Shown here one piece after another: positions 2,815-39,490 of a stretch of 64,000 bases of DNA (its first letter is position 1; each line of letters begins with the position of its first letter). The notes under the pieces were generated by a model. That model did not search any database. It worked only from the letters and a program-made list of their open reading frames with translations, and had not been told where the DNA came from. A program made the position numbers and the translations under genes. The stretch is from a virus: positions 1 through 64,000 of IMG/VR virus record IMGVR_UViG_3300030202_002193. One strand, given 5' to 3'.

Positions 2815-3085
2815 TTGGAATACTTATTCTGAACTAGCAACTTGGGCCACGACTACTAAAGAAGGAATGGCAGTTATCGCCTTAGTAATATACTTTGCTT
2901 GTTTTTTTATACCAGCAGTACAGGTATCATTCTTTGATTCTGAAGGGGAAAAAACTGGCCTACTTACTAACATTATAGTTTTCATAGCGACCTTCGTATT
3001 ATTGCCGCCAGTATTACTATTATCATTGGTGCTTGATTTCTTGGGCTTCCTAAGCGTAGAGGTGGAGTGGGAGTATGAAAACTAA
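2804..3085 (+). CDS. Membrane protein with two hydrophobic segments
   Basis: GGAGGG RBS; two long hydrophobic stretches. Confidence 0.7.
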   Translation: MEINWNTYSELATWATTTKEGMAVIALVIYFACFFIPAVQVSFFDSEGEKTGLLTNIIVFIATFVLLPPVLLLSLVLDFLGFLSVEVEWEYEN

Positions 3086-3526: not shown

Positions 3527-3823
3527 ATGAAAGAAAATAAACTCTACTGGAAAAGAAATAGAATCTGTACTAGAATAATCAGGGCGTTTTCTGAAAGCGA
3601 GAAAAAATCTTTGACAACAAAAGAAATCTTCCATTTGATGTTAGACCAAACAAATAGACACGGTGCTAAATACATTAGTAACTTCACTATGCAGAAGGTT
3701 TCTCAAATACTAAATAAATATCCTTTTTTCGAAAAGGTAGGTATGCAATATGTTAAGAGCGCAGGTAATAATGGAATGCAAGTATGCGTATGGAAAGTAT
3801 CAAAATTAGGTGAGGAAAAATGA
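3527..3823 (+). CDS. Winged-helix DNA-binding protein
   Basis: Start refined to MKENK; LTTKEI...TMQKVSQIL...FEKVG...VWKV. Confidence 0.6.
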   Translation: MKENKLYWKRNRICTRIIRAFSESEKKSLTTKEIFHLMLDQTNRHGAKYISNFTMQKVSQILNKYPFFEKVGMQYVKSAGNNGMQVCVWKVSKLGEEK

Positions 3824-3969
3824 AACAAGAAAGATTGTTATTAGATTGGCTTAGTCAATATATAGACGATGTTACTACTATCCAAGTGGAGGAGGATGTA
3901 ATCCATCTATTTGTTAATGGAAAAAGAACAGGAATAATTACGCATCAAAAAATAGGTGTTTGGAAATGA
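3820..3969 (+). CDS. Hypothetical protein, 49 aa
   Basis: GGTGAGG RBS; ATGA overlaps with the upstream gene and with the polB-C start. Confidence 0.6.
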   Translation: MKQERLLLDWLSQYIDDVTTIQVEEDVIHLFVNGKRTGIITHQKIGVWK

Positions 3970-4850
3970 AAGTAGTTTATGGGCATACAGATTCTATCTA
4001 TGTAGAAATAGGTAGCATAGAAAGCGCAAAAAAGGCCGTAATAGAAATCAATAACCATGTTAGAGAATCGTTTCCTAATGTTTTGGGGCTAAGTGAGCAT
4101 CCTGTAGTTCTAGAATTCGAAAAATATTATTCTAGGCTAGGAGTGGGGGCCACTAAGAATAGAAATGCTGGTCTAATCTCTTGGAAAGACGGCTATGAGT
4201 TAGAAAAACCAGAATTTACTATGACTGGTTTTACTGCGAAGAGAATTTCCGAAACTCCTCTAGCAAAGGGCGTTCAAATGAAGGTTTTGGAAATGTGGCT
4301 TAACGATAATACCTTCAAGGAGATTAATTCGTGGCTAAATGCAAAATACGCTTCAATAATAAATGGCGATTTTGATAAAGTGGATATAATTAAGCGAAGT
4401 CGTCTTAAAGAGGAGAGATTTTCTGTAAAATGTCCCTCTTGTAATAAAAAATACAAGGTAGAAGAATGTTATTCTATAGATTGGTGCGAGAAATGCGGGG
4501 AACAGAAGAAAAACTTCACTACCTTGCAAAATAAGAAGCCTAGTTTTGGAGAAGGTGTAGGAGGAATCCTATATGGAAGAGAAAGATTGAATATGGAATA
4601 CGATGACTCATATCTATTTATGAAAATAAAGCCAAATGACACCTTCACTCACCCCTTAACAGGGGAATTAAAGTCTGCCGAGTACTATTCGGCAACTACC
4701 CTTAATGATTTCAAGAATATTGAACCGGACTTGACTTATTATGGGAATGTAATAATAAAAAAAGCAGAGCCTATCTATCGGGCTATGGGTTGGAATACAG
4801 ATTCAATCCGAACAGGTAGAATGCAAACAAGTTTTGATGATTGGTGGTAA
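3966..4850 (+). CDS. polB: Family B DNA polymerase, C-terminal half (motif C, thumb, Zn ribbon, PIP box)
   Basis: Begins MKVVYGHTDSIY (motif C); LEFEK, KNRNAG; CPSC...CEKC insert; C-terminal QTSFDDWW; AGGTG RBS. Confidence 0.93.
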   Translation: MKVVYGHTDSIYVEIGSIESAKKAVIEINNHVRESFPNVLGLSEHPVVLEFEKYYSRLGVGATKNRNAGLISWKDGYELEKPEFTMTGFTAKRISETPLAKGVQMKVLEMWLNDNTFKEINSWLNAKYASIINGDFDKVDIIKRSRLKEERFSVKCPSCNKKYKVEECYSIDWCEKCGEQKKNFTTLQNKKPSFGEGVGGILYGRERLNMEYDDSYLFMKIKPNDTFTHPLTGELKSAEYYSATTLNDFKNIEPDLTYYGNVIIKKAEPIYRAMGWNTDSIRTGRMQTSFDDWW

Positions 4851-4851
4851 T

Positions 4852-5010
4852 ATGAAAGAGTTAGAAGAAATAATATATGATATAGATATGAAAATTTATG
4901 AGTTACAGGCAAGTGAGAATACTCCTATAATAATTTTAGAAGATTTAAGGCAAGCAAGAAAATATTTAGGTAAAGCCTATAATATATTAAATGAAGGTGG
5001 TGATTATTAA
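4852..5010 (+). CDS. Hypothetical protein, 52 aa
   Basis: GGTGG RBS; TAATG overlap with the next gene. Confidence 0.6.
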   Translation: MKELEEIIYDIDMKIYELQASENTPIIILEDLRQARKYLGKAYNILNEGGDY

Positions 5011-5903
5011 TGACATATGAAGAAGAGATAAAAAATATGGATGAATATACTTATCAGTGGAATGCTGATAATTACGATAAAGAAGATGAACCTATTTTGA
5101 AGATTACGAAATCTTCTCTAGGTTCTCATGTATGGTGTCCCAAAAAGTATGAGTTTGGATATATCCAAAGACTTCCGCAAGACCAAAGTGAAGCAATGCG
5201 TAAGGGTACTTATATGCACAATGCGAGAGAAGATTTCTTCAATGATTTCGATATTGCTAAGGCTAAGGATATGTCACATGATGAACTATTAGATTATTGT
5301 ACGAGTCTATTTCCAGTAGATGAATACTTTGACGAATATCTAACTATTGCGGCGTTTGAAGCAAATAGGTTTTCTCAATCTAAAATGGAGGAAAAAGTAC
5401 ATGAGTTCTTACCTCCCTGTAATGAAGGTAAGTTTGATTGTGAGATAGTTATAGCGGCAGATACGGACCCTAAGTTTCCTCTTAGGAGAGACTACAAGGT
5501 ACACCTTCAAGGAATTATAGATAGAGTGTTTCAAGAAGGAAATGGGTATATCCCTATGGAGTTTAAGACAGGCCCTTGGAAAGACTACAAGACATCTTCG
5601 ATGAGAAAAGAAATGGCTTTCTATAAACTTATGATAGATAACTGTAGTACAGAAGTTCTAAGACAAGCGGGATTAGAACCTAATGTCCCTGTTACCCATT
5701 GGTCTTGGTATTATCCAATATCAAATTACATTTATGTAGAGGAAGTTAAGAAGTCGTCTATGACATCTATGATGAAAACAATCGCTAGATTAATTCACGC
5801 ATACGAAAGAAAGAATTTCCCTGCTAAGTTTTTCTATAAGACCTGCGCCCATTGTAGTTATTTTGGGATTTGTGAAGCGGCTCAAGAAGATACATGGGTG
5901 TGA
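5010..5903 (+). CDS. Cas4-like PD-(D/E)XK nuclease with Fe-S staple
   Basis: N-terminal CPKK; GIIDR...EFKTG; C-terminal CAHCSYFGIC. Confidence 0.85.
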   Translation: MTYEEEIKNMDEYTYQWNADNYDKEDEPILKITKSSLGSHVWCPKKYEFGYIQRLPQDQSEAMRKGTYMHNAREDFFNDFDIAKAKDMSHDELLDYCTSLFPVDEYFDEYLTIAAFEANRFSQSKMEEKVHEFLPPCNEGKFDCEIVIAADTDPKFPLRRDYKVHLQGIIDRVFQEGNGYIPMEFKTGPWKDYKTSSMRKEMAFYKLMIDNCSTEVLRQAGLEPNVPVTHWSWYYPISNYIYVEEVKKSSMTSMMKTIARLIHAYERKNFPAKFFYKTCAHCSYFGICEAAQEDTWV

Positions 5904-5907
5904 TTAA

Positions 5908-6273
5908 ATGACTGAAAAAAAACCAATGCACCTTTGCATGTATGCTTACCTATGTGGTTGCCATACTATAATGTCAAACAATAGAGAAACTATTAGCGCA
6001 CATATGAAAGAAGTCCACGGTTGGACTCAACAAGAATGTGATGATACTTTAATGGGTGATAGATTGGCGGGAGGTGATGGCGTGAGAGATTGGGAACATG
6101 AAGTTTTGATGTTTATTGACAGAACAGGTAGGGATTTTTCCTATGACTATTTTCTTTGGTTGGTAACTAATGCCGCATGGTGTCCTAAGTGTGATAAAGT
6201 CAATGATGGCGAAGGTGGCCCACATATGGGAAACGATGTGATTTGCGATGAATGCGTGGAGGTGACGGCGTAA
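5908..6273 (+). CDS. Cys/His-rich hypothetical protein, probable Zn binding
   Basis: CGC..HxxxxH, CPKC, CDEC motifs. Confidence 0.65.
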   Translation: MTEKKPMHLCMYAYLCGCHTIMSNNRETISAHMKEVHGWTQQECDDTLMGDRLAGGDGVRDWEHEVLMFIDRTGRDFSYDYFLWLVTNAAWCPKCDKVNDGEGGPHMGNDVICDECVEVTA

Positions 6274-6644
6274 TGATTGATTTATTAATAGAAGCAAAAG
6301 TAATTTCTAGAGATTGGACTTTCAATCAAATATCTGATTTGAAGAATACAATAGAAGAACTTTCTACAGAATTATATTCTGAAATGAAACTATCTGAAAG
6401 ATTTGAATTAATTAGAGAATGTCCTGTTAATGATTTATATGTAGGTCAGACCTTTGAAGATGCTTTTAGAGAAGTTGTAATGACAATTCTAAGAGGAGAA
6501 GTCGCAGGTAAAATAAAAAATATGCTAGGAAAAGCAACAATAAATTTTGGTGGTAAAAATGAAATTTCCGAGAGAAGTATGGGCAGGGAGTCACATAAAG
6601 AACGCCCCTCAAATGAAAAGGAAGATAGTAAGGACGAAGAATGA
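6273..6644 (+). CDS. Hypothetical protein
   Basis: GGAGGTG RBS; TAATG overlap; start refined from the ORF track. Confidence 0.7.
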   Translation: MIDLLIEAKVISRDWTFNQISDLKNTIEELSTELYSEMKLSERFELIRECPVNDLYVGQTFEDAFREVVMTILRGEVAGKIKNMLGKATINFGGKNEISERSMGRESHKERPSNEKEDSKDEE

Positions 6645-7605
6645 ATATACTGCATTTGTAAAAGCGCAGAATAATCGCACTAATGTCTATACTACGGTCT
6701 ACGACTTTGAGCATTTCAGCGAGATGTCTAAGATTGACTCTAGTGTAATTCTAGATAGGATTTTCTTGGACTTCGATGCTCACGGAGAAAGTTTAGATAA
6801 TGCCTTTGAGGATTTGAAGATGGTAATGGAATATGTAATCACTAATGATATTCAGCATTCCTGTTTCTTTTCGGGCAGGGGATTTCATTTGTTTTTACAT
6901 GGGGAAGTTACAGATAATATCCGTGACATACAAGCATACTTTAGAATAATTAAAAAGTACCTAAAAAACAATACTAACTATGAAATTACTTTAGATGATA
7001 GAGTAGGGCAATCTACTAGATTGAGAAGAGTACCCAATACTGTAAATATGTCAAGTAGAAATGAAGCAGGTATTCCCTACTATTGCATTCCTATTTTCTA
7101 CGAAGATTTGGCAAGAGGACTTTCTCATATTCTGAAATTGGCAGAAAGACCTAGGCTTATACCTAAGAGGATTACAGGAAAGGAAAAAATATCATGGCCA
7201 AAATCCAAGCCCTTAGAAGCAGTAAAGGGAGAAGTAGTGGCTACCGTTTTCAAGGGTAGGCTACCTATTCTTCCCTGCTTACATAGTGCAATTATGGTAG
7301 AGAATCCTAGCCATATGGCTAGAGCATATCTTGTATCTTGGTATAGAGATTTATTATCCGGTTGTAGTAAAGGATTAAGTAATTCTGAAAAGCAAGATAT
7401 ATTAGATAAAGTCGTAGAGGAAATTAAATGGATAGCCGAAACTCACGATGAGGTTTGGCTTGATTGGGACGAAGGAGAGACTAGGAAACATGCTCGCTTT
7501 ACGGTGTTCGGAGAATATACTGCGCCACACTGTAAAACAAAATTGATTCCCGAAGGGTATTGCATTGGAAAATGTTGGAGATATCCACATGAGGTGAAAC
7601 AATGA
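6559..7605 (+). CDS. Archaeo-eukaryotic primase, PriS fused to a PriL-like Fe-S domain
   Basis: FLDFD, FSGRGFH, RLRRVPNT; C-terminal LPCL...HC...C..KC. Confidence 0.9.
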   Translation: MKFPREVWAGSHIKNAPQMKRKIVRTKNEYTAFVKAQNNRTNVYTTVYDFEHFSEMSKIDSSVILDRIFLDFDAHGESLDNAFEDLKMVMEYVITNDIQHSCFFSGRGFHLFLHGEVTDNIRDIQAYFRIIKKYLKNNTNYEITLDDRVGQSTRLRRVPNTVNMSSRNEAGIPYYCIPIFYEDLARGLSHILKLAERPRLIPKRITGKEKISWPKSKPLEAVKGEVVATVFKGRLPILPCLHSAIMVENPSHMARAYLVSWYRDLLSGCSKGLSNSEKQDILDKVVEEIKWIAETHDEVWLDWDEGETRKHARFTVFGEYTAPHCKTKLIPEGYCIGKCWRYPHEVKQ

Positions 7606-8364: not shown

Positions 8365-9818
8365 ACGAAGATATAAATATAGAAGAATTAGCAGAACTTG
8401 TAGATATTCCCGAAGAATATCACGGACTCGCACTAGAAGAAAAGATGCCTAGATTGGTAGAGGATTGGAAGAGGACAGTTCTAACTGTTTCTCATAAAAA
8501 TGATATTCCGGCTATGGCTTCCTTCTTCTCTTTACTTGGTCAAATTACTAAAGACTTCATTAGAATACCTAGAGGGAAAAATACCGAAGATAGCAGAATT
8601 CACTTTTGTTGGATGCAGACTTCAGGAACAGGAAAAAGCACCCTTTGGAATTTTATGGGACCAGTTAGTAAATCTCTGCATAAAAAGATTAACGATTTCG
8701 AAGGAACAAGCGGGACAGATTCTTCGGAAGTATATATTCCTAGAAAATATAATAATTTCGATGTTGTAGAATATACGGATGCGGCTCTAATCGGCTTCTA
8801 TGAAAGGCTAAAAGAATTAGATGAAAACGATGAACCGGTATTTGAAAGAAGGTCGGGTTCTTTAGAAGGAAACGGGCTTGCCCATTGGGACGAATTCGAA
8901 TACTCCGGAGTTTTCAAACAAAGCCAGCACAAAGAAAATATCATTGTATATCTAAATACTTTGATGAATACCTTAGAAGGGGAATCTTGGATAATTACTA
9001 AGAAATTGAAAGAAGGACATTTGATGGAATGTATGTGCCAGCGTTCAGTTTGGGCCACCACCTATATTCCTAAACACCTTAAATCTGTAATAGCAGAAAA
9101 AGGCGTACTGCAAAGAATGTTAGTCTATGTTCGAGAAGTACCCGAAGAAGAACAACATGAGATGAGAATGTTACAGTTGAGGCAATCAGGTAAAAGAGAA
9201 GTAACTGAATTAGATACAGAAAGGTTTGCAAAATCCCTCTTCTCTCTTTACAAAAATGTAAAGGCAAGATTCTTAGAAGTAGGAGAAGACCCATTTAGTA
9301 CTGTAACTTATAGTGAGGGATTTGCAGATGCTCTCGTAAATGAATACATGAAAATGAGAGAGTACATCAAGTCCTGTAGGCCGGAAATCAGAGAAATTGC
9401 TCAAAACTTTATGACTAGAATTAATGTTCAGTTGTTGAAATTATCTGTTCTATGTTGTATAGCAGAAAGAAAGTTTGTAGTTACTCCTACGCATGTTCGT
9501 CAGGCATATATTTTAACCCAACAATGTTATAGCACATTGGTAGAGTGGCTAGAACGAAGCCTGAAGATACAGAAGTCGGCCCTCGTCCAAAATAAATCTG
9601 TAGTGTTCGTACAAGAATATAATGGAATGGTAAAGGATGGAGAAGTAAAAGACAATGGTTATGTTAGCAAGCCCAAGTTATTTGAAAGAGTGCAGAAAAA
9701 AGGTATTTCTAGAGCGCAATGTTATAGAGACTGGAAAATTATTGAAAATAAATTTGAGATTGATACCGTAAACAGGTCCGTATTTGTTAGGCTAAAAAAA
9801 GGAGATGATGAAAAATGA
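8361..9818 (+). CDS. MCM-like AAA+ replicative helicase lacking the usual N-terminal domain
   Basis: Walker A SGTGKS, Walker B HWDEF, Arg-finger-like VLQRM, sensor-2-like TRINVQLLKLS, C-terminal winged helix. Confidence 0.7.
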   Translation: MNEDINIEELAELVDIPEEYHGLALEEKMPRLVEDWKRTVLTVSHKNDIPAMASFFSLLGQITKDFIRIPRGKNTEDSRIHFCWMQTSGTGKSTLWNFMGPVSKSLHKKINDFEGTSGTDSSEVYIPRKYNNFDVVEYTDAALIGFYERLKELDENDEPVFERRSGSLEGNGLAHWDEFEYSGVFKQSQHKENIIVYLNTLMNTLEGESWIITKKLKEGHLMECMCQRSVWATTYIPKHLKSVIAEKGVLQRMLVYVREVPEEEQHEMRMLQLRQSGKREVTELDTERFAKSLFSLYKNVKARFLEVGEDPFSTVTYSEGFADALVNEYMKMREYIKSCRPEIREIAQNFMTRINVQLLKLSVLCCIAERKFVVTPTHVRQAYILTQQCYSTLVEWLERSLKIQKSALVQNKSVVFVQEYNGMVKDGEVKDNGYVSKPKLFERVQKKGISRAQCYRDWKIIENKFEIDTVNRSVFVRLKKGDDEK

Positions 9819-22063: not shown

Positions 22064-23467
22064 TCACCCCAATGTTCTAGAAGAAGTACTTCTATTAATT
22101 TTATTATTTACCATATCCCCTATCTTATTTGCGATTCTTCTCATTTCTCCATCGGAAGTATCTCTAGCATTAATGGTAATGTTGATATTAGTAACGCCAC
22201 CGCCACCGCCAACCATACTCCTACTTTTTCTATTAGAATGTACTTTAGAACCTGCTGGAAGATTTACTAGTTCCGGACCCTTTTCTCCTACAAGAGCCAT
22301 TCCTCCATGAGAAGTACCTCCAGCATGGAAAACATCCCAATCGGATAGTTTATCCCAAAGCCACATTGCTATAACCATTACTCCTCCGATTATAATTGCT
22401 GGTAGAAGTATTGGTAGACCATACATCCATAATACCATAGCGGCCAAAGCACCTAAAGCAATTAAAGCCCATTGTTGCCAACTTAACCCCTTAAACCAAT
22501 CAATAGCCGCATTCCAAGCATCTTCAGCAAGTTGAGCCAAAGCAGAAAGACCTCCCATTAAAACAGTATATCCAAACTTTAGCAAGATATATGCACCGGC
22601 TACTAGTAAATCTAACATTGCAAATGCTAAATCTAAAAGAGAAGCATCTCCCATAAAGAAATCAAATATAGTAGAGAAACTTTCCCAAACAGTATCTATG
22701 GCAGTTGATATACTTTCAAAAAATCCTTCGAATGGTTCTATGAATCCAGTGTATAGAGACTGAACAGTACTCCAAAAAACCTTGAGGAATGTGCCTACTG
22801 CCATTATAACTAACATGGAAATAATAAAGAAGTTGAAGGCTTTAGATAATATAGTTCTTGCTAATTTCATAACTCCTAAAATAAGCCCCCCACTTTTACC
22901 AATCCAAGTAAATTTATTTCTTTTAAGCCAAGACAAAGCATTTCCACCTTTTTCTCTAGCACCTTTTCCAAAGGCCTGAATTTGGTCTAATCTTTTATTA
23001 ACTGCTTCTTTACGCCGACCAGCAAATCCTTTAGCCCCAACTCTAATACTTGTGGATTTATCGTCCATAATTCCTTTTATTCCTATTTGTTTGAAATCGC
23101 TTACCAAGCCCTTCATTCCCTTACCCATACTTTCGAAAGAAGGTATGTTTAGTTTTTCTGCAAAATTAGGGATTTTTAGTTTAGATAATTGCTTAATGCC
23201 TTTTCCTAGTAAAGAATTTTTTTTCATTATTTGTCCCATAGTAGTATCGTAAACCTTTCCTGTTGAAAGTAAACCGGTCTTGAATTTATTCAATATTGTA
23301 AAACTGCCCCTAAAGGTATAAAGAAAACTTTTAGCAAATCCCTTAAACCCGTCTTGGGCATTCATAAAGCCCGAAACCGCTTTACCTGCTTTAGTAAGTA
23401 CGCCTTCGTATTTTTCAGCAGCCTTTTCTGCCTTTTTCATGTCTTCTATCATTCTTTCAAAAGACAT
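22064..23467 (-). CDS. Tape measure protein
   Basis: Helical with hydrophobic segments; HAGG...VGEKGPELV; NINITIN; follows the chaperone genes. Confidence 0.8.
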   Translation of the reverse strand: MSFERMIEDMKKAEKAAEKYEGVLTKAGKAVSGFMNAQDGFKGFAKSFLYTFRGSFTILNKFKTGLLSTGKVYDTTMGQIMKKNSLLGKGIKQLSKLKIPNFAEKLNIPSFESMGKGMKGLVSDFKQIGIKGIMDDKSTSIRVGAKGFAGRRKEAVNKRLDQIQAFGKGAREKGGNALSWLKRNKFTWIGKSGGLILGVMKLARTILSKAFNFFIISMLVIMAVGTFLKVFWSTVQSLYTGFIEPFEGFFESISTAIDTVWESFSTIFDFFMGDASLLDLAFAMLDLLVAGAYILLKFGYTVLMGGLSALAQLAEDAWNAAIDWFKGLSWQQWALIALGALAAMVLWMYGLPILLPAIIIGGVMVIAMWLWDKLSDWDVFHAGGTSHGGMALVGEKGPELVNLPAGSKVHSNRKSRSMVGGGGGVTNINITINARDTSDGEMRRIANKIGDMVNNKINRSTSSRTLG

Positions 23468-27980: not shown

Positions 27981-29489
27981 TCAAGCACCTTCTTCTATTT
28001 CGTCTTTTACTGAATCGAACCTATCCAGTATTTCTTCTATATGGTCGGAAAGCCTTTCGTTAAAACGATATTCCCTATTCAAACTCTCCCTACTCTCCTT
28101 TAATTTAGTATATCTTTCTTCGATGTCTTTAGATATACTTTGTATTACTTCCATACTAATCCCTTCTGATTCTTCTGACGATAATTTATCTTCTAATTCG
28201 GATAGGGCTTCTTTTTGCTTTTGCTCATATTCCTTTTCAGTTTCGATTTCAGTTTGGGCTTCGTTCATTATCTTATTATATTCTTTAATGGCATCGGATA
28301 AGATTTTAGATTCACTATCACTTAATCCCCTGTCTGAAATTGCTTCCGAAGTTATTTCTGATTTTCCTTTGCCTTTAGTCCTTTGATAAGTAGGTTTAGA
28401 AAACGGGCTAATATCAAAAGTCCCTATTCTTACAGATTTAATCTTTACTTCATATTTGAAAGATTTAGTTTCTTCAAGGGGGTCAATTTTTTTAACCATT
28501 CCAGTAATATAGACTTCGTAAGTTTCATCCATAAGAGGGTCTGCCTTATTCATTTCTGCTAAATATTTTATTAATTCATCAGATACTCTACCTACAATAG
28601 AATCCATTTCTGATTCTATTATTTCTTTAATATCGTCTAATTTATCCTTTTTATTATCTTCAGTTATTTTACCAGTAGTTAATATTTGTTTAACTTTAGA
28701 TAGATTTAATTCATGCGTACCTCTTAATTTTGACAAAGATACTGATTCAGTACTCTTTAATATCCTTTTACCTGTACTTCTATAATTTACATTGGGGTAG
28801 ATTCTTTTTAGAAACTTTGTTCTTTCTTCAGTATTATTATATTCTGAAAAGTACAGTACGGATTTATCTTTACCGGTAGAGGTTATTTCTATAGTTGGCA
28901 AACCAGAAGTCTCTCCTATATTTATTTCAAAATATGGTTCAAAGTCAGGTTTTTTCATAAACATGCTAGGCAAGGAAGGCACATCTGCCCCAAAATCTCT
29001 AGTTTGAGGAATGTTTCTAAGTGAAGAAATATATTCCTGTGCCTGTTCGGTGTCTGCATAGTCTTCGCCTAGATTATAAGGACCAGTAAACTGTTCCGGT
29101 TCTTCTTCCGTAACCTTTCCAAATAAACTATATCCTATAATTTTTAATAAGTTATCAGATTCTCTCATATCCTCTAAAGTAAAATCTTTAACCTCATCAA
29201 ACACCCTACTTCTTCTTAGAGACCTATACATAATTGGTTCGGGCTTTCCTCTTTTAGCCAAATCTAAAATCTTCTCTTTTTCTATTCCTTCTAGAATCTT
29301 TAGGCCTTCTTCTACAAAAGCATCATTATCAAATTGTATAGAAGTATTGATGGCAGATTTTTCTGCAATGCCGGTTATTTCCCCATCTTTGAATCCAGTT
29401 CTTCCAACTATAGTATCTTTGATTTTTTCAGTAAAATCTGTTGGCCAATTTCTAATAGAGCCATCGGAATCAATTACTTTAGTCGGCAT
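27981..29489 (-). CDS. Hypothetical protein with C-terminal coiled coil
   Basis: 502 aa ORF. Confidence 0.75.
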   Translation of the reverse strand: MPTKVIDSDGSIRNWPTDFTEKIKDTIVGRTGFKDGEITGIAEKSAINTSIQFDNDAFVEEGLKILEGIEKEKILDLAKRGKPEPIMYRSLRRSRVFDEVKDFTLEDMRESDNLLKIIGYSLFGKVTEEEPEQFTGPYNLGEDYADTEQAQEYISSLRNIPQTRDFGADVPSLPSMFMKKPDFEPYFEINIGETSGLPTIEITSTGKDKSVLYFSEYNNTEERTKFLKRIYPNVNYRSTGKRILKSTESVSLSKLRGTHELNLSKVKQILTTGKITEDNKKDKLDDIKEIIESEMDSIVGRVSDELIKYLAEMNKADPLMDETYEVYITGMVKKIDPLEETKSFKYEVKIKSVRIGTFDISPFSKPTYQRTKGKGKSEITSEAISDRGLSDSESKILSDAIKEYNKIMNEAQTEIETEKEYEQKQKEALSELEDKLSSEESEGISMEVIQSISKDIEERYTKLKESRESLNREYRFNERLSDHIEEILDRFDSVKDEIEEGA

Positions 29490-29499
29490 TTAATTCAAC

Positions 29500-30153
29500 T
29501 CACATTAGCCACTTAGCCCAAGCCGCACCTTTCTGAATTGCGCCACCTAATCCTAATCCGGACTTTGGTGGTTCGTAACTCATCTGACCATTAGCATCTA
29601 ACCAATATGGCCGACCATACATATCTTGCCCATTAGGAGGAATCGGATAGCCCGAACCATTGTTCATAGCACCTTGCATTTGTTGGTATTGTTGAGTTTG
29701 TCCCGTTACTCCAGCAAGAGCCATACCTGCTGAAACCTGTTGTTGCCCACCGCCAAATCCTTGAGATTCTAAGAATTGAGACTTAGCCATCTTTCTCTGA
29801 TTAATTACTTCGGCATCAATAGCAGAATTCAATAGATTCATTATATCTAATTCTATGTTAGCGGCAGTAATTCCCTCAAATTCCCTTAAAGAATCAGGAT
29901 GGATTCTAATACTTTTAGTGGTATCGTCTTGAATAAACTGCAATTTAGTCAGCATTCTACTAACTACTCTTTCGGTAACATCTTCCATAAGTGTTTCTAA
30001 ACACTTCAAAAACTTATCTCCGTGGTATTGGAAAAACTCTTCCACATGGTTATCCTGTAAAGAAAGTAAATTATTTACATTCTTGAATTGTTGGTCGCTC
30101 TGTGCTTGTACTGCTCCTAATACTGCGCCGTTACTTGTTCCTAATATCCCCAT
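29500..30153 (-). CDS. Gln/Gly-rich protein with a C-terminal amphipathic tail
   Basis: 217 aa; ends GGAIQKGAAWAKWLM. Confidence 0.75.
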   Translation of the reverse strand: MGILGTSNGAVLGAVQAQSDQQFKNVNNLLSLQDNHVEEFFQYHGDKFLKCLETLMEDVTERVVSRMLTKLQFIQDDTTKSIRIHPDSLREFEGITAANIELDIMNLLNSAIDAEVINQRKMAKSQFLESQGFGGGQQQVSAGMALAGVTGQTQQYQQMQGAMNNGSGYPIPPNGQDMYGRPYWLDANGQMSYEPPKSGLGLGGAIQKGAAWAKWLM

Positions 30154-30154
30154 A

Positions 30155-30796
30155 TTAATCCTCTCCTTCTGCTTGTACCCCTTGTTTAATCATTAGATGG
30201 TTTAGTCTGTTAGTCAATATATTAATTTCCCCAACGATAGTAATTGCTTCTTCAGTAGGCGTACTATTATCTCCTAATGTGGGAGGTTTAATAAGCCATC
30301 CGGCGGAAACTAAACTAGACACATCTTCTTTACTTAATGTATTTAATGGGCCTCTCCTATTCATTTTTGGAATTTTTGGAATAAATGCTTTGAATTCTAA
30401 ACCATGTTGTTCTGCCAAAATCTGTTGTTGCAACATTTCCATTTGTCTATGTATTCCGGAATGTTTGGGACAGTATGTTCCTCGCATTGGCCTACCTTTG
30501 GTTACATGAGATAAAGGAATTGGTGGCCGCATATAGTCTCCGCTATCCCATGTATGGTGCATTCCGCAAACCACGCAACGGTCCTTTAGATTAAACTTGT
30601 AACTATATTTAATTTTCAAAAAGGATTTCTTTTCCGGTACTAAAACCTTAACCAATTCTTTCAATTGTTTCTTTGGTTTTATGTTGATGCACTTATATTC
30701 TTCTATCGGCCCACTTGCTCTTGCTCTTTGCAACGGTGGCAAAAATGCCGACGGTGCAGTTGTATTCATTTGTCCTATTATATTTTGTTGAAACAT
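30155..30796 (-). CDS. Zn-binding hypothetical protein
   Basis: CVVC...CPKH. Confidence 0.7.
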   Translation of the reverse strand: MFQQNIIGQMNTTAPSAFLPPLQRARASGPIEEYKCINIKPKKQLKELVKVLVPEKKSFLKIKYSYKFNLKDRCVVCGMHHTWDSGDYMRPPIPLSHVTKGRPMRGTYCPKHSGIHRQMEMLQQQILAEQHGLEFKAFIPKIPKMNRRGPLNTLSKEDVSSLVSAGWLIKPPTLGDNSTPTEEAITIVGEINILTNRLNHLMIKQGVQAEGED

Positions 30797-30811
30797 TTTT
30801 CATTCCTCAGT

Positions 30812-31216
30812 TTACATATAGTCCGGTATATCCCAAGACCCATAAGAAGTATTCTTATCCCACATCTGTAGCATTTCTCCACTTTGGGCATCATCGGGAA
30901 CAAAATTATATCCTTGATTATCTAAAGCATATGCGATTAAATGATAGAGATTTTCGCCATATCCTCTTCTCATAAATCTAGAGTCTGTTCTAACATCTTT
31001 TGCTTGAAAGGTATCGTCATCTATCTTTTCTGCATAAGCCCTTGTTATTTGCCTACCTTCTTTATCAATAATATTAGCATCCAAAGATTCATCGTGAATA
31101 GAAACTGACATTTTTAATTTTTCATCACTTTTGTTGTCTAGAAACATGGCAGTTGTTTCATCTCCCCTAATAACTATATTAGAAATGCGGTTTTGTTTTA
31201 ATATTTTTTGCCACAT
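30812..31216 (-). CDS. GNAT-fold acetyltransferase-like protein with leader MWQKILKQ
   Basis: VRTDSRFMRRGYGENLY motif A; QS..MW. Confidence 0.7.
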   Translation of the reverse strand: MWQKILKQNRISNIVIRGDETTAMFLDNKSDEKLKMSVSIHDESLDANIIDKEGRQITRAYAEKIDDDTFQAKDVRTDSRFMRRGYGENLYHLIAYALDNQGYNFVPDDAQSGEMLQMWDKNTSYGSWDIPDYM

Positions 31217-31234
31217 AGTAATCAATAATCCTCT

Positions 31235-31603
31235 TTAATATCTTTCATCTAGTTCAAACTTACCTTCTAATTTGTTTCGGGTTCCCTCGGCAGTATTGGA
31301 TTGTCTAGTATCGGGAACATAGTTTTTGGAAGGAGATTCTTCTTCTTTTAGTTTAATAACATAATACATGGTTGGGGAAGCAAGACTTTGAAATACTCCA
31401 TCTTCCATTTTAACTACCTTTCCCTCTTTAGCACTACCAACAACAGTATAATTTATTTCTTTGGCCATTTTTTTTATCCAAGCAAAAGCATCATCCCTGT
31501 CTGTAAAGTCCTTTGTTTCAGGTTCATAGTCTCCATCACTGTCTTGTAATTTGAGATATAACACTATTTCGTTATCCTTTTGTTTTAATATTTTTTGCCA
31601 CAT
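31235..31603 (-). CDS. Leader protein (MWQKILKQ)
   Basis: First ~25 nt identical to those of the 31216 gene. Confidence 0.75.
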   Translation of the reverse strand: MWQKILKQKDNEIVLYLKLQDSDGDYEPETKDFTDRDDAFAWIKKMAKEINYTVVGSAKEGKVVKMEDGVFQSLASPTMYYVIKLKEEESPSKNYVPDTRQSNTAEGTRNKLEGKFELDERY

Positions 31604-31613
31604 TTTAATTCCT

Positions 31614-31973
31614 CTAATTTTCTTCTATTATTGAATATCTATCCTCTTGTTCTTTTCGCATATATGTAATTGTCTTTACATGAATATTTCTGCTATATCT
31701 TTTAATTACTAAATATGCGTTTTTCTTTTTCTGCCTAACTAATTTTACAATGATTGTAGTTTTTTTCGGTAGTTGTCCTCGATTAAGTTTTCTTTCTATA
31801 GCGTTTTTGATTCTTTTCATTTTAATATCGGGGAATCTTAATTGTAAATTGTCACTAAAATGTTTGGTTAAAAAAATCTTTACTTTCTCTCCATTATTTA
31901 ATTTTAAAAAATATTGTTCGGCAGTTTCTTTGATACTGTCGTATGGGTTTACCTTTAGAATCATTTTCCACAT
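31614..31973 (-). CDS. Leader protein (MWKMILKV), basic, possible RelE/DUF4258-like fold
   Basis: FLTKHF...R motif; C-terminal IHVKTIT. Confidence 0.6.
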   Translation of the reverse strand: MWKMILKVNPYDSIKETAEQYFLKLNNGEKVKIFLTKHFSDNLQLRFPDIKMKRIKNAIERKLNRGQLPKKTTIIVKLVRQKKKNAYLVIKRYSRNIHVKTITYMRKEQEDRYSIIEEN

Positions 31974-31978
31974 AGTAA

Positions 31979-32641
31979 TCAATAATCCTTCAGCATCGTC
32001 ATTACTCCACGATACACCATTTCCGGTTGAGATTTAGCCGACACAATATATTTGAATGTTGGGATGCCCTTATCATTAAGCCGTTGCATCCCATATTTGA
32101 AAGGTCCGAATATAGGATGGTCTTGTATGTCTCCGTCATATTTGTGTTTTTCTCCCCAAATATCGTATTTATTAGCCCATATAGCAACTGCTATAGGGTA
32201 GTCTTGTTCTTTTTTCTTTTTTCTATTGGGCCAAGTATTAGCACAAATGGCATCTACTAAAAATTTCCAAGCGAGTTGGTGGTCTAGATTAGCCCCGCTA
32301 TCTAAATGTCTATGGTCAATCATAAAAATAATGTAATTCACCTTTCTTTTCTTCATATCAGAAATCCATTCTTTCCAATAGAATGATTCTCCCCCGACAT
32401 CTGCTGATTTTAGAGTATGGATTTCTCCTTCAATTTTTATTGTTTTTCTAGTTCCTTTATGAAGGCCGACTGTTCTTTTTTTAATTTCAGGAACTTCTCC
32501 TCTAGTTCTAAGTTGATGATTAAGAGTTGTCTTTCCTACCATAGTTGCCCCATAAATTCCAAATTGTATGGCGTGTATTCTTTTGTAAAATGCTATCGCC
32601 GCTTCTGTTATTACAATAGCGAAACCTGCTAGTACTGACAC
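31979..32641 (-). CDS. Arf/Sar-like small GTPase with N-terminal hydrophobic helix
   Basis: G1 GATMVGKTT, G2 RTVG, G3 DVGGE, G4 NKYD, G5 SAK. Confidence 0.88.
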   Translation of the reverse strand: MSVLAGFAIVITEAAIAFYKRIHAIQFGIYGATMVGKTTLNHQLRTRGEVPEIKKRTVGLHKGTRKTIKIEGEIHTLKSADVGGESFYWKEWISDMKKRKVNYIIFMIDHRHLDSGANLDHQLAWKFLVDAICANTWPNRKKKKEQDYPIAVAIWANKYDIWGEKHKYDGDIQDHPIFGPFKYGMQRLNDKGIPTFKYIVSAKSQPEMVYRGVMTMLKDY

Positions 32642-32643
32642 AT

Positions 32644-32865
32644 TCAATCACCAAAGGTATGTGACCATGCAGATTGTAGGCCGTCTAAGCACCATCCTAA
32701 GATATTGATATCAAATACTCCTAATATATTTCCAATTAGAAATGACGCTAACGCCGCACAACTTCCCCAAAAATAAGCCCTAAATCTTAGAAACCAAATA
32801 TCAGCAGAATGCGCTCTTTGCAAATCATATGCCATTGCGCCTTCATCAAAGCCAGTAAAAACCAT
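32644..32865 (-). CDS. Small membrane protein
   Basis: Hydrophobic C-terminal half; GGTGA RBS. Confidence 0.7.
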   Translation of the reverse strand: MVFTGFDEGAMAYDLQRAHSADIWFLRFRAYFWGSCAALASFLIGNILGVFDINILGWCLDGLQSAWSHTFGD

Positions 32866-32876
32866 GAGGCTTCACC

Positions 32877-33275
32877 TCATCTTTCAATGGCGGCCAAAAA
32901 CTCATTGCCTACGCCTTCGGTTTCTAAAGAGGAAACTAATTGAGTAGGTGGAACATTAAAGGTATTACTATGAGTCTTTAGGGTCTCTCGTATTTTTCCC
33001 TTCTGTTCTTCTTCCTTTCTTTTCTGCGCCCAAAAATGATTCACTCTTCTATCTAGCAAATACATTTCAATTTTTTCATTAAGGGCTAAATCAAATACTG
33101 CTTTTAGAATCATGATGGCCCCTACTGTAATTAGCCCAAATAAAGTTGCGTGGGCTAAAGTCGTGTAAGGGAATTCTGTTCCATAATTAGCATAAAAGAA
33201 AACATTTGCTCCGCTAACCGTCCCTACGAATAGGATAGTCATAACTAGGCGTGTATCGTGTTGTAGTGCTGGCAT
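32877..33275 (-). CDS. Two-TM membrane protein with coiled-coil tail
   Basis: Two hydrophobic segments. Confidence 0.75.
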   Translation of the reverse strand: MPALQHDTRLVMTILFVGTVSGANVFFYANYGTEFPYTTLAHATLFGLITVGAIMILKAVFDLALNEKIEMYLLDRRVNHFWAQKRKEEEQKGKIRETLKTHSNTFNVPPTQLVSSLETEGVGNEFLAAIER

Positions 33276-33284
33276 AAAAAAACC

Positions 33285-33608
33285 TCAATTAAATTCTACG
33301 GAAACTGCATGTCGTGTGGAAGCATCAGGGCTTCCCTCACTATTTGCAATTTGCAAATAGAGTCCTTCTCTAGCCAAAACTCCGTGCATATCATATTCTA
33401 GATTAACAGGACCGGATGGTACGCTAAACACAAACCTAGCCAATTCTGTATTATTCGTTAAGGTAGAATCTTTTGAATCCCAAACCTTTATCGTAATTAC
33501 ATCGGGGCCACCGGCTTCTGCCGCTACATGTATGCTTTTTAATCTACATTGATGTGCCGCTATTACTGCGCTCGCCGTTAAAACTCCACTAGACCTGCAA
33601 CTATCCAT
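33285..33608 (-). CDS. Probable minor virion protein (beta-sandwich)
   Basis: Position downstream of the capsid genes. Confidence 0.55.
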   Translation of the reverse strand: MDSCRSSGVLTASAVIAAHQCRLKSIHVAAEAGGPDVITIKVWDSKDSTLTNNTELARFVFSVPSGPVNLEYDMHGVLAREGLYLQIANSEGSPDASTRHAVSVEFN

Positions 33609-33657
33609 ATCAATCTCTCCGTATATCCGTAATGCCGATAATACTTGAAGATGTTGG

Positions 33658-34041
33658 TCATTCAGAATCTTCAGATTCTTCTACAACTTCTTCAGTTTTT
33701 GTCGGTACTACTACTTCTTTTACCTTTTTAGCGGCTTTCTTAGCACTTGTTTTTGCTTTTGTTGCCACCGTTTTCTTAGGTAAGAGGAGTTTAACCAAGT
33801 CTTCGCCTGTAGGAACAGTAGGAAGATTTAGAATGCCTTGCGACATTCCTAAAAGTTTCTCACTCAATTCCAATAGTTCTTCTTCATCGGACTCTTCAAA
33901 TGTAATGAGAAGGTTGGGGTCTTGCATTTTTAGCAGACCTTTTAGTGCGGAGATTTCACAAGAGTCTTCCCTTGTTATTTCTTCTCGCCCAATTCTCAAC
34001 CTTCCCATTACAGAAGACTCACTAAGAATAATCTTAGCCAA
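33658..34041 (-). CDS. Hypothetical protein with K/A/E-rich tail
   Basis: GAGGTGA RBS, TTG start. Confidence 0.7.
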   Translation of the reverse strand: MAKIILSESSVMGRLRIGREEITREDSCEISALKGLLKMQDPNLLITFEESDEEELLELSEKLLGMSQGILNLPTVPTGEDLVKLLLPKKTVATKAKTSAKKAAKKVKEVVVPTKTEEVVEESEDSE

Positions 34042-34051
34042 TTATTTCACC

Positions 34052-34393
34052 TCAAATGTTTCCGTATGCTCGGATTCTAATGGTAGTATCGGTAATATCT
34101 CCCGATGCTTGGGCATTAGTACCATCCATATTAACTAGATATAGATGGAATCCGCCTTCGTAAAGTCCAGCCGCAGTACATTCTGCTGAAGCAGAGTAAG
34201 TAGCAGGTAGAGAATTTCCTGTAATTGTTACAGAAGTCAATTCTCCTAGTCCTAAAGAACTAGCACTAACTACTTCGCCTCCAGCAGTATATGTTGTTAC
34301 TACAATAGCCGCATCCACGAAATACTCATCTCCGGAAACTCTAGGCCTTGTCTGCCCTTTATGGTCAGCCAACAATGTTACAGTATGTGCCAA
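34052..34393 (-). CDS. Probable capsid decoration / minor capsid protein
   Basis: Directly after MCP; YTAGGE...LGL...IRAYG. Confidence 0.6.
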   Translation of the reverse strand: MAHTVTLLADHKGQTRPRVSGDEYFVDAAIVVTTYTAGGEVVSASSLGLGELTSVTITGNSLPATYSASAECTAAGLYEGGFHLYLVNMDGTNAQASGDITDTTIRIRAYGNI

Positions 34394-36976: not shown

Positions 36977-39490
36977 TTAGGGTTTTTCCGTATTTATTGA
37001 CAACTTTGCATATTTATCGTTATTGATATTCCAAATCCCTTTATCGCCTTCTTTGTCTGCTGGCTCTTGTTTATAGCCAGTCCAAGCCAACCACATTTCT
37101 TTATCGTCTACTGGGATTACTCTAAAGTGCATTTTAGTTTCAAATTTATTCCCCTTTATGAAATACTCATGGTAGCCATCTCTTTGTATTCCTAGAGTAA
37201 TATCTCCTTCGTCTATTACTTTGGAATCAGGGGAGATGGTAGTAGCGACTTCAGCAGGGAATTTCCCCGCTTTACCGAATAGGTTGAATATATCATCATC
37301 CGAATTAATATCAATAGTCCAATACATTGTCTCTTCAGATAATTTAATCGCAAATGTTAGGTTATCGTCCTTTCTAGAATATACCTTAAACTGGCCCTCC
37401 CTATATTCTGAAGGAGTTTGATATTCTTCTTCACTTAACATTATCTTATCAGAATCCGCCATGAATTTTTTCTCCTTATGGCTAAAAGTAATTCCATCTC
37501 TAGAATTAAACCATTGAGTTAATTTACCCATATTGCTATCCAATATACTATCATATAACCTTCCGACATCCTTAACTAAAAAATTATGTAGTTCTTTCAC
37601 AGTCATAGGCCCTCTTTCTTTCAATCTTTGAAATACTGAAACAGTTAATTCACTTTGTTTAGTTTTCATTATGTTTTCTGCATCGGCCTTCCAAGAATTT
37701 AAATTCATCATAGCATGTTTAGACATTAGATTATCTTCTTCGAATTCATACAAAGCAAAGCCGTCCATAGATTTTAGAATTGCTTCCCCATGAACATAAT
37801 CTGTAATCAGAATTCCTTTTTCTAAAGCCTTGGCCTTGAACTTCAGACTCTTTTTAGTTTCCTTAGATAGCATCTCTAATGTAACTATCTTATCAGGATA
37901 TTCTACTTCGGGTATTTCTATAACACTAGAACCATAAATGGTATATTTCTCACCATTGGTTTTTACTTCGTCCACCTTAACTCTAAGTATGTCTCCTATA
38001 TCTACATCCACTTTGGTATTATTTGCCTTACCTACATTCATATATTTTATTTTATCTAATTCTTTAATGTGCTTTCCTTCTCCTTCTGCCGGACCAGCAC
38101 CCAATGTGTATGAAAACATATTTGATTTTGTTTTCTTTTTATCTAAGACGATTAAATCTAAATCGACAAATTTCTTCCACTTAACCCATTTAGGATTTTT
38201 CTTAGTGCCTATGTAATATGTAGAAGTAATGTCTTTAATAACCACTCCTTCAGCAGTAGGCATCTCCATAATTTCTTTACTATATTCTTCAATGTCTTTT
38301 ATGCTATCCGCAATTCTAGTATCTTTCTTGGAAGGGAATTGCAAATGGTCATCCGAGTGCATGGAATAATTATTGAATAGAATGTTTATTCTTTCGGATA
38401 GTTCTTCTGAAGCCATATTTCTCTCATCATGTCTCATGATATCAAAAACATGAGCCTTTAATTCAGCATCCTGATATTGGTTCTTGAATACATGGGAAAT
38501 AGTATCTGCACGATGTAGGGCTTCTTCTCCATCGAACAAAATTAATTCTGCATCAAGAATACAATCTCCGAAGTGCTTTCTCTTAATTACCTCGACTTGC
38601 CTTTCACATTTGTCAGTAATGTCCTTTTCATTGTAAGAATATATTTTTACATTGTTATCTATCTTGTGAATCTGTATTCTCATACCATCATATTTTTCTT
38701 GAACAACCCATTCTCCGCTAAAGCCTTGTAATTCTTTGAGGTCATCTATCTCAAATATTCTATACATTGGCTTATTAGGTATTATGAAATCTACTTGGGC
38801 CTTTTCTTCTTGAGATTTTTCTGCTTTTTTAATCTCTACACCTAATAGGCGATTCCATTCTTCCTCCGTGTTTTTAGATAGGAAGAATAGTTTTAGTAGA
38901 GATAGACCATTCTTAAATCTAGATTCTATTTTCTTAGAATCCTTTCCATCTCCATAATGCTCTGTAATATATAACGGGATATCTTTAGGGTCTAAGTCTA
39001 ATCCTTTTAGACCAATAGTAATATCGTCCGGCTCTATATCTTTTATTGAATATAATTCATCAGATAAAACTTCATCATCGTTTCGTAGGGCATAATGAAT
39101 AAACTTAATCATAGTCCCGCTATCTTCCATTAATGCTTCTAGGACATTTCCTTTGAAGCGTTTTGCAAATGGGTCTTGAACTTCGTCTGATTCGAAGCGT
39201 AGCATTTTAATTGCATTGTAGACCTTCTCGGCAGTAGGAGTTTCAGGATTCATTGCATCTTTAGATTGTAAGATGTCTTCTGCTAGGTATTGTTCTAGTT
39301 GCCCGCCCAAGTAATCTAAATTATCGTATTCATCTCTTAGGTCTTCTATTGTTTTTCTCCATCTAGAGCCATAGGTTTTAGAATCACTCTTAGCAGATAG
39401 GTAGGCCACTCTAGTCTTTTCGAAGAGAGAGAGGATTTTATCAGAAACGGATTCAGTTTCCTTCTCAAATAGAAGGCCGGTCAGTGGCAT
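36977..39490 (-). CDS. lig: ATP-dependent DNA ligase with N- and C-terminal extra domains
   Basis: QEKYDGMR, ILDAEL, HVFDI, EGVVIK, WVKWK, OB fold. Confidence 0.92.
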   Translation of the reverse strand: MPLTGLLFEKETESVSDKILSLFEKTRVAYLSAKSDSKTYGSRWRKTIEDLRDEYDNLDYLGGQLEQYLAEDILQSKDAMNPETPTAEKVYNAIKMLRFESDEVQDPFAKRFKGNVLEALMEDSGTMIKFIHYALRNDDEVLSDELYSIKDIEPDDITIGLKGLDLDPKDIPLYITEHYGDGKDSKKIESRFKNGLSLLKLFFLSKNTEEEWNRLLGVEIKKAEKSQEEKAQVDFIIPNKPMYRIFEIDDLKELQGFSGEWVVQEKYDGMRIQIHKIDNNVKIYSYNEKDITDKCERQVEVIKRKHFGDCILDAELILFDGEEALHRADTISHVFKNQYQDAELKAHVFDIMRHDERNMASEELSERINILFNNYSMHSDDHLQFPSKKDTRIADSIKDIEEYSKEIMEMPTAEGVVIKDITSTYYIGTKKNPKWVKWKKFVDLDLIVLDKKKTKSNMFSYTLGAGPAEGEGKHIKELDKIKYMNVGKANNTKVDVDIGDILRVKVDEVKTNGEKYTIYGSSVIEIPEVEYPDKIVTLEMLSKETKKSLKFKAKALEKGILITDYVHGEAILKSMDGFALYEFEEDNLMSKHAMMNLNSWKADAENIMKTKQSELTVSVFQRLKERGPMTVKELHNFLVKDVGRLYDSILDSNMGKLTQWFNSRDGITFSHKEKKFMADSDKIMLSEEEYQTPSEYREGQFKVYSRKDDNLTFAIKLSEETMYWTIDINSDDDIFNLFGKAGKFPAEVATTISPDSKVIDEGDITLGIQRDGYHEYFIKGNKFETKMHFRVIPVDDKEMWLAWTGYKQEPADKEGDKGIWNINNDKYAKLSINTEKP

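Follow-up and report, generated by a model that had tools for sequence, protein, structure and literature searches.

A conserved five-gene cassette built around an Arf-like small GTPase in viruses of Marine Group II archaea

The cassette and its place in the late module

The IMG/VR virus record IMGVR_UViG_3300030202_002193 is 84.5 kb in length and is rated complete. Our analysis concerns its first 64,000 nucleotides (referred to below as the window; GC content ~35%), in which an earlier note, made from the sequence alone, had described a membrane-anchored Arf-like GTPase between positions 29,500 and 33,275, preceded by two membrane proteins and followed, beyond some inserted small genes, by a Zn protein and a Gln-rich protein. 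Every one of these genes is present on the minus strand where the note had placed it. In order of transcription, and as judged from open reading frames (ORFs), motifs and hydropathy, they encode mem132 (132 residues with two hydrophobic segments, 32877-33275), mem73 (73 residues with one hydrophobic segment, 32644-32865), the Arf-like small GTPase (222 residues, or 220 if translation begins at a GTG two codons downstream, 31979-32647), three small ORFs of 122, 122 and 137 residues (31614-31982, 31235-31603 and 30812-31225), the Cys/His protein zn213 (213 residues, 30155-30796) and the Gln-rich protein q217 (217 residues, 29500-30153).

Homologues of the GTPase include gp088 of Poseidoniales virus YSH_150918, which identifies the virus in the window as a magrovirus, that is, a tailed virus of Marine Group II archaea; its host therefore belongs to Marine Group II (Poseidoniales), and it is not a haloarchaeal virus. 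The late module of the window lies on the minus strand and includes genes for the portal, an ATP-dependent DNA ligase, the prohead protease, an SU10/HK97-type capsid protein and the tail tube protein. The cassette sits between the capsid and neck genes, in the virion module to which the note had assigned it. In the window it does not form a separate operon, because the genes from capsid to neck overlap or are separated by gaps of 1-49 bp, and the block is thus embedded in a long late transcription unit. Kyte-Doolittle analysis detects two hydrophobic segments in mem132, one in mem73 and one in the GTPase, and none in the other nearby late proteins. Across the whole 84.5-kb genome the cassette supplies three of only six hydrophobic proteins encoded on the coding strands.

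Conservation and variation of the cassette

Close relatives of the GTPase are encoded on 279 IMG/VR stretches, here termed lineage 1; 80 of these loci were compared, of which 68 span all five genes (the cassette without the inserted ORFs). All 68 complete loci show one and the same order: 2-transmembrane protein, 1-transmembrane protein, GTPase, Cys/His protein, Gln-rich protein. Median identity in this lineage is highest for the capsid protein (77.6%), with the GTPase second (73.6%), and amounts to 72.5% for q217, 61.4% for zn213, 60.8% for the protease, 59.4% for the ligase, 57.6% for mem132 (present in 78/80 loci) and 56.7% for mem73 (79/80). In total, 334 homologues of the GTPase share 65-90% identity.

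A second lineage, located via a distant GTPase (P0133), comprises 127 further viral contigs. On these, tblastn still recognises the GTPase (at 31-36% identity) and, of the other cassette proteins, the Cys/His core of zn213 alone. Nevertheless, the ORFs there follow the same order: a 2-transmembrane protein with a charged tail, a 1-transmembrane protein, the GTPase, a Cys/His protein and a Gln-rich protein. Profile-profile comparison supports homology of the GTPases of the two lineages (99.9%, E 2e-37), and hhalign likewise relates zn213 (96.7%, E 4.6e-10) and the N-domain of q217 (90.8%, E 1.2e-6) to their lineage-2 counterparts. The lineage-2 genomes are magrovirus-like, in that their capsid proteins are 44-49% identical by genome scan (37% by tblastn along the full length). 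The giant proteins of the window (2336 residues) and of lineage 2 (2313 residues), by contrast, lack homology to each other. One complete genome of this lineage (118 kb) carries the cassette at 15.8-18 kb, upstream of the terminase (24.2 kb), portal (27.1 kb), protease (37.8 kb) and capsid (39.1 kb) genes and hence ~23 kb from the capsid gene. The capsid-to-neck interval in lineage 2 measures 2.6 kb and is contiguous, with no cassette in it. This relocation with intact order indicates that the cassette moved as a block and that no cassette needs to stand between the head and neck genes for these to function. A head-tail connector or adaptor set is ruled out by the same contiguity, and no cassette protein has a structural match in PHROG or Pfam.

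Two further lineages possess the same arrangement. In lineage 3 (G3 motif DIGGH) the five genes directly follow a gene for a thermosome-type chaperonin; at locus L177 this group II chaperonin (3820-5481; Cpn60_TCP1, E 1.7e-140) is immediately upstream of the cassette. The genome of the window virus contains, far from the cassette, a 502-residue ORF (75094-76602) whose N-terminus looks chaperonin-like. Lineage 4 (G3 motif DIGGQ) has the same order, except that an acidic 260-residue gene is inserted ahead of the GTPase and that additional small membrane proteins occur on either side, and its Cys/His protein is homologous to zn213 (99.7%, E 4e-25). Lineages 2-4 each encode an analogue of mem132 with the same position and topology, without a significant profile match. 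The five genes are thus a movable unit common to four virus lineages with differing flanks, and the five-gene unit proposed in the earlier note withstands the comparison of synteny both within lineage 1 and in the three divergent lineages. In lineage 2 the unit may have its own archaeal promoter: at locus L095 (genome GC 46%) the first cassette gene is preceded by a strongly AT-rich, TATA-like gap of 141 bp (9107-9247) that ends in AAGGAGG before the ATG.

Two sites within the cassette are variable. The junction between the GTPase and zn213 is less than 100 bp long in 47/75 related loci and carries inserts of 234-1093 bp in the other 28/75. In the window, each inserted ORF opens with one copy of a 44-nt direct repeat (31189-31232, 31576-31619 and 31946-31989) in which the end of the GTPase gene and the beginning of the following gene are duplicated, so that the N-termini take the form MITMW.../MW.... 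The 137-residue ORF has a homologue in two related loci, whereas no related locus shows one of either 122-residue ORF. This junction is an insertion hot spot, and the three small genes are cargo that lies outside the conserved cassette. The second variable site is the mem73/GTPase region. The 3' third of mem73 varies: 652 other letters take the place of positions 32653-32752 in DNA runs X3 and X9 from other studies, and this segment is densely substituted in DNA run X4. Two loci (L020 and L024) carry inserts of ~520-560 bp between mem73 and the GTPase, where lineage 4 invariably has its acidic 260-residue gene.

Seawater and estuary metagenomes from several studies contain near-identical DNA in which all three inserts are present. 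In one RNA library, q217, zn213 and the inserts are covered by four identical contigs; these are compatible with transcription of the cassette, although DNA carry-over is possible and the contigs give neither strand nor level.

The GTPase and its partners

Translation of the GTPase gene reveals G1 (GATMVGKTT, 32525-32551), G3 (DVGGE, 32387-32401), G4 (NKYD, 32162-32173) and G5 (SAK, 32033-32041), all on the minus strand, together with a candidate G2 (RTV, 32468-32476). The earlier description of a complete small GTPase with a hydrophobic N-terminus and DVGGE as its G3 motif is therefore borne out, with G2 as a candidate. The G1, DxGGE, NKxD and SAK motifs are invariant in 24 family members, and residues G33, G38, K39, T41, D83, G86, N159, K160 and D162 do not vary between lineages whose identity is only ~30%. 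Such constancy of the nucleotide-binding residues argues for a working guanine-nucleotide switch. The residue following DVGG is an invariant Glu in lineage 1, Gln in lineages 2 and 4, and His in lineage 3. Since the Q61E variant of Ras keeps or even raises intrinsic GTPase activity, Glu at this position need not mean a dead enzyme. The family also shares a specific "IDHRH" block and an insertion before G4.

The protein is, judging from the order of its motifs and the small-GTPase fold of its model, a Ras-superfamily small GTPase (TRAFAC class). The AlphaFold2 (AF2) model has a predicted local distance difference test (pLDDT) score of 64.6, falling below 50 in the switch region (residues 36-89), and it matches G-alpha, Ras, Arf, Arl and Rab chains alike (E ~1e-6, template modelling score ~0.5); separation of Arf from Ras by structure was abandoned because the modelled switch region is too uncertain. 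Pfam models for Roc, MMR_HSR1, Ras and SRPRB match the window protein at E 0.016-0.063, all below their cut-offs. The SRPRB match (E 0.063) reaches 13.1 bits against a cut-off of 25, which does not place the protein with SR-beta; the Arf model PF00025 gives no match at E<=0.1 and so falls short of its gathering threshold. The NCBIfam model TIGR00231 (small_GTP) matches at E 0.002, likewise below its cut-off. An exhaustive HMMER search of 1.84 billion representative proteins with the family profile returned only 77 matches, which marks the family as an isolated one; several of these matches are full-length distant relatives of 240-264 residues. Four of the distant members so defined (P0159, P0183, P0194 and P0197) pass PF00025, and one distant member passes SRPRB and carries the SRPRB name at JGI, where some records of GTPase homologues have been named automatically "GTPase SAR1 family protein". 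A tblastn search of the INPHARED phage collection with the GTPase gave no match, nor did searches of viral contigs for the distant family members P0138 and P0132 or of metagenome contigs for P0184.

A profile built from lineage 1 only matches Ras in the PDB at E 0.14. The viral-only profile of all lineages (A4) finds as its best small GTPase 8OUN (E 1.6e-5, best single-domain E 0.005), followed by Arl8/Arl10 (~4e-4), Rab33B (2e-3), SR-beta (5ck3, 0.026) and Ras (0.06), where small GTPases were counted after P-loop artefacts on RecA concatemers. 8OUN, like 8OUM, is GerdArfR1, an Asgard Arf-related protein (ArfR; bioRxiv 10.1101/2024.02.28.582541), and its alignment with the viral profile spans the N-terminal helix through switch II. 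These rankings lend modest support to "Arf-like" as a fair label for what the viral protein resembles. Membership of the Arf family is, on these sequence comparisons, not established, given that the window protein fails every Pfam GTPase threshold and has Glu in place of the catalytic Gln. The epithet used in the earlier note therefore survives as a description of likeness, with ArfR and Arl8 as best matches of the viral-only profile, but not as a family assignment.

The N-terminal hydrophobic/amphipathic anchor of the GTPase is encoded at 32585-32641 on the minus strand, and its hydrophobic stretch reads VSVLAGFAIVITEAAIAFY. In the AF2 model, residues 2-24 form a helix ahead of strand 1. This N-terminus is composite: a hydrophobic leader of 12-15 residues, strong in lineage 1 (Kyte-Doolittle value 1.99) and weak elsewhere, is followed by an aromatic/basic amphipathic stretch that directly precedes the G domain in all lineages, has a hydrophobic moment of 0.44-0.72 over 11 residues and aligns to the ArfR helix. 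One Glu in the helix is invariant, and hydrophobicity drops markedly in sister lineages (13/80 pass the threshold); rather than a true transmembrane helix, the element may be an anchor of the in-plane or amphipathic type. In Arf proteins an N-terminal amphipathic helix docks on the G domain and moves to the membrane when GTP binds.

The only cellular relative that we located is a 239-residue, very distant family member with the G3 motif DVSGE, encoded at 6001-6720 of a 573-kb contig from an Anaerolineae metagenome-assembled genome (L167). Its close relative P0197 is among the proteins that pass the Pfam Arf cut-off. At E 9e-4 to the viral profile, the Anaerolineae protein was set aside as too distant for functional inference.

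The hydrophobic segments of mem132 comprise residues 10-28 (nt 33192-33248) and 43-61 (nt 33093-33149), and the long C-terminal tail is rich in Lys, Arg and Glu. The predicted topology is N-in/C-in, and by the positive-inside rule the charged tail and the G domain of the GTPase would both be cytoplasmic. mem132 has no match in Pfam, PHROG or NCBIfam. The earlier observation that no holin is recognisable holds for families, as neither a holin family match for mem132 (PHROG, Pfam) nor a lytic enzyme in the neighbourhood of the cassette was found, but it overlooks architecture: two transmembrane segments with a highly charged C-terminal tail fit the generic layout of a holin. In mem73 the single hydrophobic segment (residues 32-50, nt 32716-32772) has a basic N-side and an acidic C-side. 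Elsewhere in the window, the early/replication region encodes on the plus strand (2804-3085) a holin-sized protein of 93 residues with two strong hydrophobic segments, which could compete with mem132 as a candidate for lysis or exclusion.

zn213 has a conserved core, "KKxLKE...CVVCG...GRxMRGTYCPxH", followed by helices, in which C74, C77, C109 and H112 (within nt 30461-30577) form a putative metal site. Its family comprises 1071 clusters, all unnamed and without Pfam domains, and searches of zn213 against Pfam and the ESM Atlas gave nothing. The AF2 model (pLDDT 66) has no Foldseek match in the PDB at E<=0.001; the best wide VIA-align match (Z 4.8) lay on helical bits, and no fold was assigned. 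In lineage 4, "TYCPxH" becomes "SSY[AS]PD[FL]" and the second Cys is missing as well, and one lineage-3 member lacks the His. The metal site would therefore be ancillary, which weakens both the analogy with Zn-finger GTPase-activating proteins (GAPs) and the parallel with the archaeal protein ArvC discussed below. A superficial likeness of "CPKHSGIHR" to the "CxxCSGxHR" of ArfGAPs was also considered. The ArfGAP motif is CX2CX16CX2CX4R with a conserved Arg finger; zn213 departs from it in spacing (C-x2-C-x31-C-x2-H) and has no Pfam ArfGap match. R117, four residues after the last ligand, is R/K/M in lineage 1 and His in lineage 2. The likeness was ruled out on two grounds, the variability of the Arg and the absence of the site from lineage 4.

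The Gln-rich protein q217 is more than a Gln-rich linker. It consists of a conserved N-domain (residues ~30-130), a middle rich in Gln, Gly and Met, a Pro-rich block ("YGRPYW") that is likewise conserved, and a hydrophobic/amphipathic C-terminal 20-mer (29503-29562 on the minus strand) that hardly varies. The hydrophobic moment of this C-terminus is moderate (0.38 over 11 residues). The earlier reading of a Zn protein and a Gln-rich protein with an amphipathic end beyond the inserts is thus upheld, with a Cys/His site in the one and moderate amphipathicity in the other. A possible link of the q217 N-domain to portal proteins (ESM Atlas, 0.88, clusters partly with portal families) is at best a weak lead towards an assembly role and was not relied on, since the score is below the reliable level.

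Several other genes of the window, all on the minus strand, deserve mention. Between the capsid gene and the cassette (33285-34393) lie g113, g127 and g107, encoding small beta-rich or acidic proteins whose conservation is confined to lineage 1 (median identity 38-49%). They match no family and may serve in head decoration or completion. Directly after the cassette, g502 (27981-29489) encodes a coiled-coil-rich, hypervariable protein with an acidic tail that is detectable in 13/80 related loci at 29-44% identity, where its neighbours exceed 60%. An 837-residue protein with an ATP-dependent DNA ligase core (PF01068, E 3e-28; 36977-39490) is encoded between the portal region and the prohead protease, a position in the late module that is conserved in relatives. 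Just downstream of the tube gene and a 124-residue ORF, a 467-residue protein with three hydrophobic segments and no Pfam match (22064-23467) has a position and hydrophobic patches that suggest a tape-measure protein.

Possible roles of the cassette and comparison with known systems

We consider it very probable that the cassette is a membrane-acting module governed by a GTP switch. Following the workings of Arf, Sar1, SR-beta and ArvA, the GTPase would sit at the host cytoplasmic membrane late in infection, where the cytoplasmic parts of the three hydrophobic proteins would meet. mem132 and/or mem73 might serve as its receptor or exchange factor, and the GTP-bound form would then recruit zn213 and q217, the two soluble partners, as regulator and effector. 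The resulting assembly might deform or perforate the membrane at a time, or with a turnover, dictated by GTP hydrolysis.

The purpose of such a module is more tentative. Progeny release, by lysis or egress, appears the likeliest, with odds that still fall short of even; this claim draws on membrane topology, late expression context and analogy. It is most attractive because no release machinery is known for head-tailed archaeal viruses and because the cassette holds most of the late-strand membrane proteins. The egress players of these viruses were described in a 2024 review as "completely uncharacterized" (PMC10791045). A more specific version, in which the cassette is the release machinery of head-tailed archaeal viruses and acts as a GTP-timed breach by five proteins, an Arf-type switch gating holin-like proteins and a Gln-rich effector, is rather doubtful. 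Several observations weigh against a role in release. mem132 and mem73 are not demonstrably homologous between lineages by profile comparison, the anchor of the GTPase is weakly hydrophobic in lineages 2-4, and the GTPase model is only moderate, with a low-scoring switch region. The dispensability of the Cys/His site in lineage 4 argues against a catalytic role of the Zn-finger GAP type. No partner in the cassette matches a known holin, lytic enzyme, GAP, guanine-nucleotide exchange factor or coat family or fold (Pfam, PHROGs, NCBIfam and structure searches). Phage lysis genes usually evolve fast, unlike the GTPase, which is among the most conserved genes of these viruses. Moreover, the cassette lies among morphogenesis genes wherever its flanks were mapped, and a role in assembly fits this equally well. 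What speaks most strongly against a classical lysis cassette is its high conservation, together with its unfailing association with morphogenesis genes.

These same two features would fit a membrane-tethered platform that anchors or times procapsid, portal or tail assembly or packaging, with the GTPase as a checkpoint, much as T4 heads begin to assemble at the membrane with the help of the membrane protein gp40. The cassette is found among morphogenesis genes in both mapped lineages (between capsid and neck in lineage 1, upstream of terminase and portal in lineage 2), and its conservation equals that of core virion proteins. However, the contiguous capsid-to-neck interval of lineage 2 speaks against a connector set, and no hidden Markov model or fold links the cassette proteins to any virion protein. 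We regard such a platform as unlikely. If the five genes instead packaged their products for entry, the membrane proteins and GTPase would form or gate a DNA channel in the membrane of the new host, as with the internal or ejection proteins of T7- and P22-like phages. Hydrophobic proteins within the structural module are typical of such systems, and in the window the cassette does fall between head and tail genes, but the lineage-2 cassette lies away from both, a GTPase requires cytoplasmic GTP and partners, and no homology to known ejection proteins was found in Pfam or PHROG. We know of no packaged small GTPase and consider this explanation improbable.

Another unlikely explanation, to which we give about the same weight as to the assembly platform, is take-over of the host at its membrane for ends unrelated to release, such as vesicle formation in the manner of ArvA, a block of cell division or of envelope growth, altered transport or superinfection exclusion. 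The Arf family generally brings effectors to membranes, and high conservation would fit contact with a conserved host target. Among archaeal small GTPases, a membrane phenotype has been tested for ArvA alone, which drives vesicle formation with a neighbouring Zn-ribbon protein (PMC10927574). Yet the summary of the main ArvA-bearing groups in that work omits the phylum of the host, no OapC/ArvC match exists in the viral genome at E<=1, no cassette protein has a DUF2073-type or Pfam match, and the cassette shares its orientation and tight packing with late structural genes as opposed to early ones.

The cassette offers a concrete, compact, highly conserved and cloneable candidate for the release of head-tailed archaeal viruses, and a GTP-timed release machinery would mean that Arf-related GTPases circulate in viruses of non-Asgard archaea. 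A role in assembly or host manipulation would still leave a virus-borne GTP switch, for which we know of no precedent in tailed viruses. Prokaryotic viruses seldom encode an Arf-type membrane GTPase together with partners of its own, and this is one such case. The magrovirus papers PMC5434244, PMC10160649, PMC11706807 and PMC8651126 do not mention the GTPase, and a literature search linking magroviruses and GTPases returned nothing.

Among known systems, Asgard ArfR and the eukaryotic Arl8, Arl3 and Arf1 share with the viral GTPase the small-GTPase fold and a DVGG-type G3 followed by an aromatic/Trp switch-II pattern, and the viral N-terminal helix just before strand 1 aligns with the amphipathic helix of ArfR. 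The viral protein differs from the Arf family in having an extra hydrophobic leader of 12-15 residues in contrast to a lipid-modified amphipathic helix, Glu for the catalytic Gln, the "IDHRH" block and the insertion before G4, and in being encoded by a tailed archaeal virus. ArfR has been reported only in Asgard archaea and Korarchaeia (10.1101/2024.02.28.582541), and a viral Arf-type GTPase consequently bears on the pre-eukaryotic history of Arf-like switches. SR-beta also has a hydrophobic N-terminus, and the His at its G3 recurs in viral lineage 3; however, it is eukaryote-specific (10.1101/2024.02.28.582541), the sequence link is marginal (5ck3, E 0.026), and no genes related to the signal recognition particle lie near the viral cassette.

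Partner architecture provides a second basis for comparison. To our knowledge, no classical Arf-family member is anchored by an N-terminal transmembrane helix other than SR-beta, which has His in place of the catalytic Gln and pairs with SR-alpha. COPII employs a membrane-anchored activator (Sec12), Sar1 with a membrane helix, and the soluble GAP and effectors Sec23/24 with Pro/Gln-rich low-complexity parts. By architecture the viral cassette has the same parts list, although no similarity of partner sequence or fold was found. Phage holin/antiholin pairs and the archaeal virus-associated pyramid protein (PVAP) are, like mem132 and mem73, small late membrane proteins, with mem132 contributing two transmembrane segments and a charged tail and mem73 a single-segment partner. 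In contrast to phage holins the viral pair has no PHROG or Pfam match and no adjacent lytic enzyme, and is far more conserved than is typical; we know of no holin system that uses a GTPase. Transmembrane segments with a highly charged cytoplasmic tail are the features by which holins have been described (PMC10791045).

In Haloferax volcanii vesicle formation, the Zn-ribbon gene arvC lies near the GTPase gene arvA (PMC10927574). No match to ArvC (OapC/DUF2072, PF09845) was found in the whole viral genome at E<=1, whereas control genomes including Haloferax volcanii do match; a DUF2073 protein of the type of ArvB, whose gene would be expected directly downstream of the GTPase gene, is absent, and genes flanking the GTPase have no Pfam match at E<=0.1 other than at chance level. 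None of the 77 matches of the exhaustive search is recognisable as ArvA (HVO_3014), as none exceeds 280 residues and none is named; the comparison with ArvA is by description. In place of ArvB and ArvC, the viral GTPase is accompanied by two transmembrane proteins and a Gln-rich protein. Both systems nevertheless consist of an Arf-like GTPase with an N-terminal hydrophobic or amphipathic helix whose gene lies beside that of a Zn-binding protein, the membrane action being that of ArvABC. By analogy, ArvA-ArvB-ArvC is the closest functional precedent for the viral cassette.

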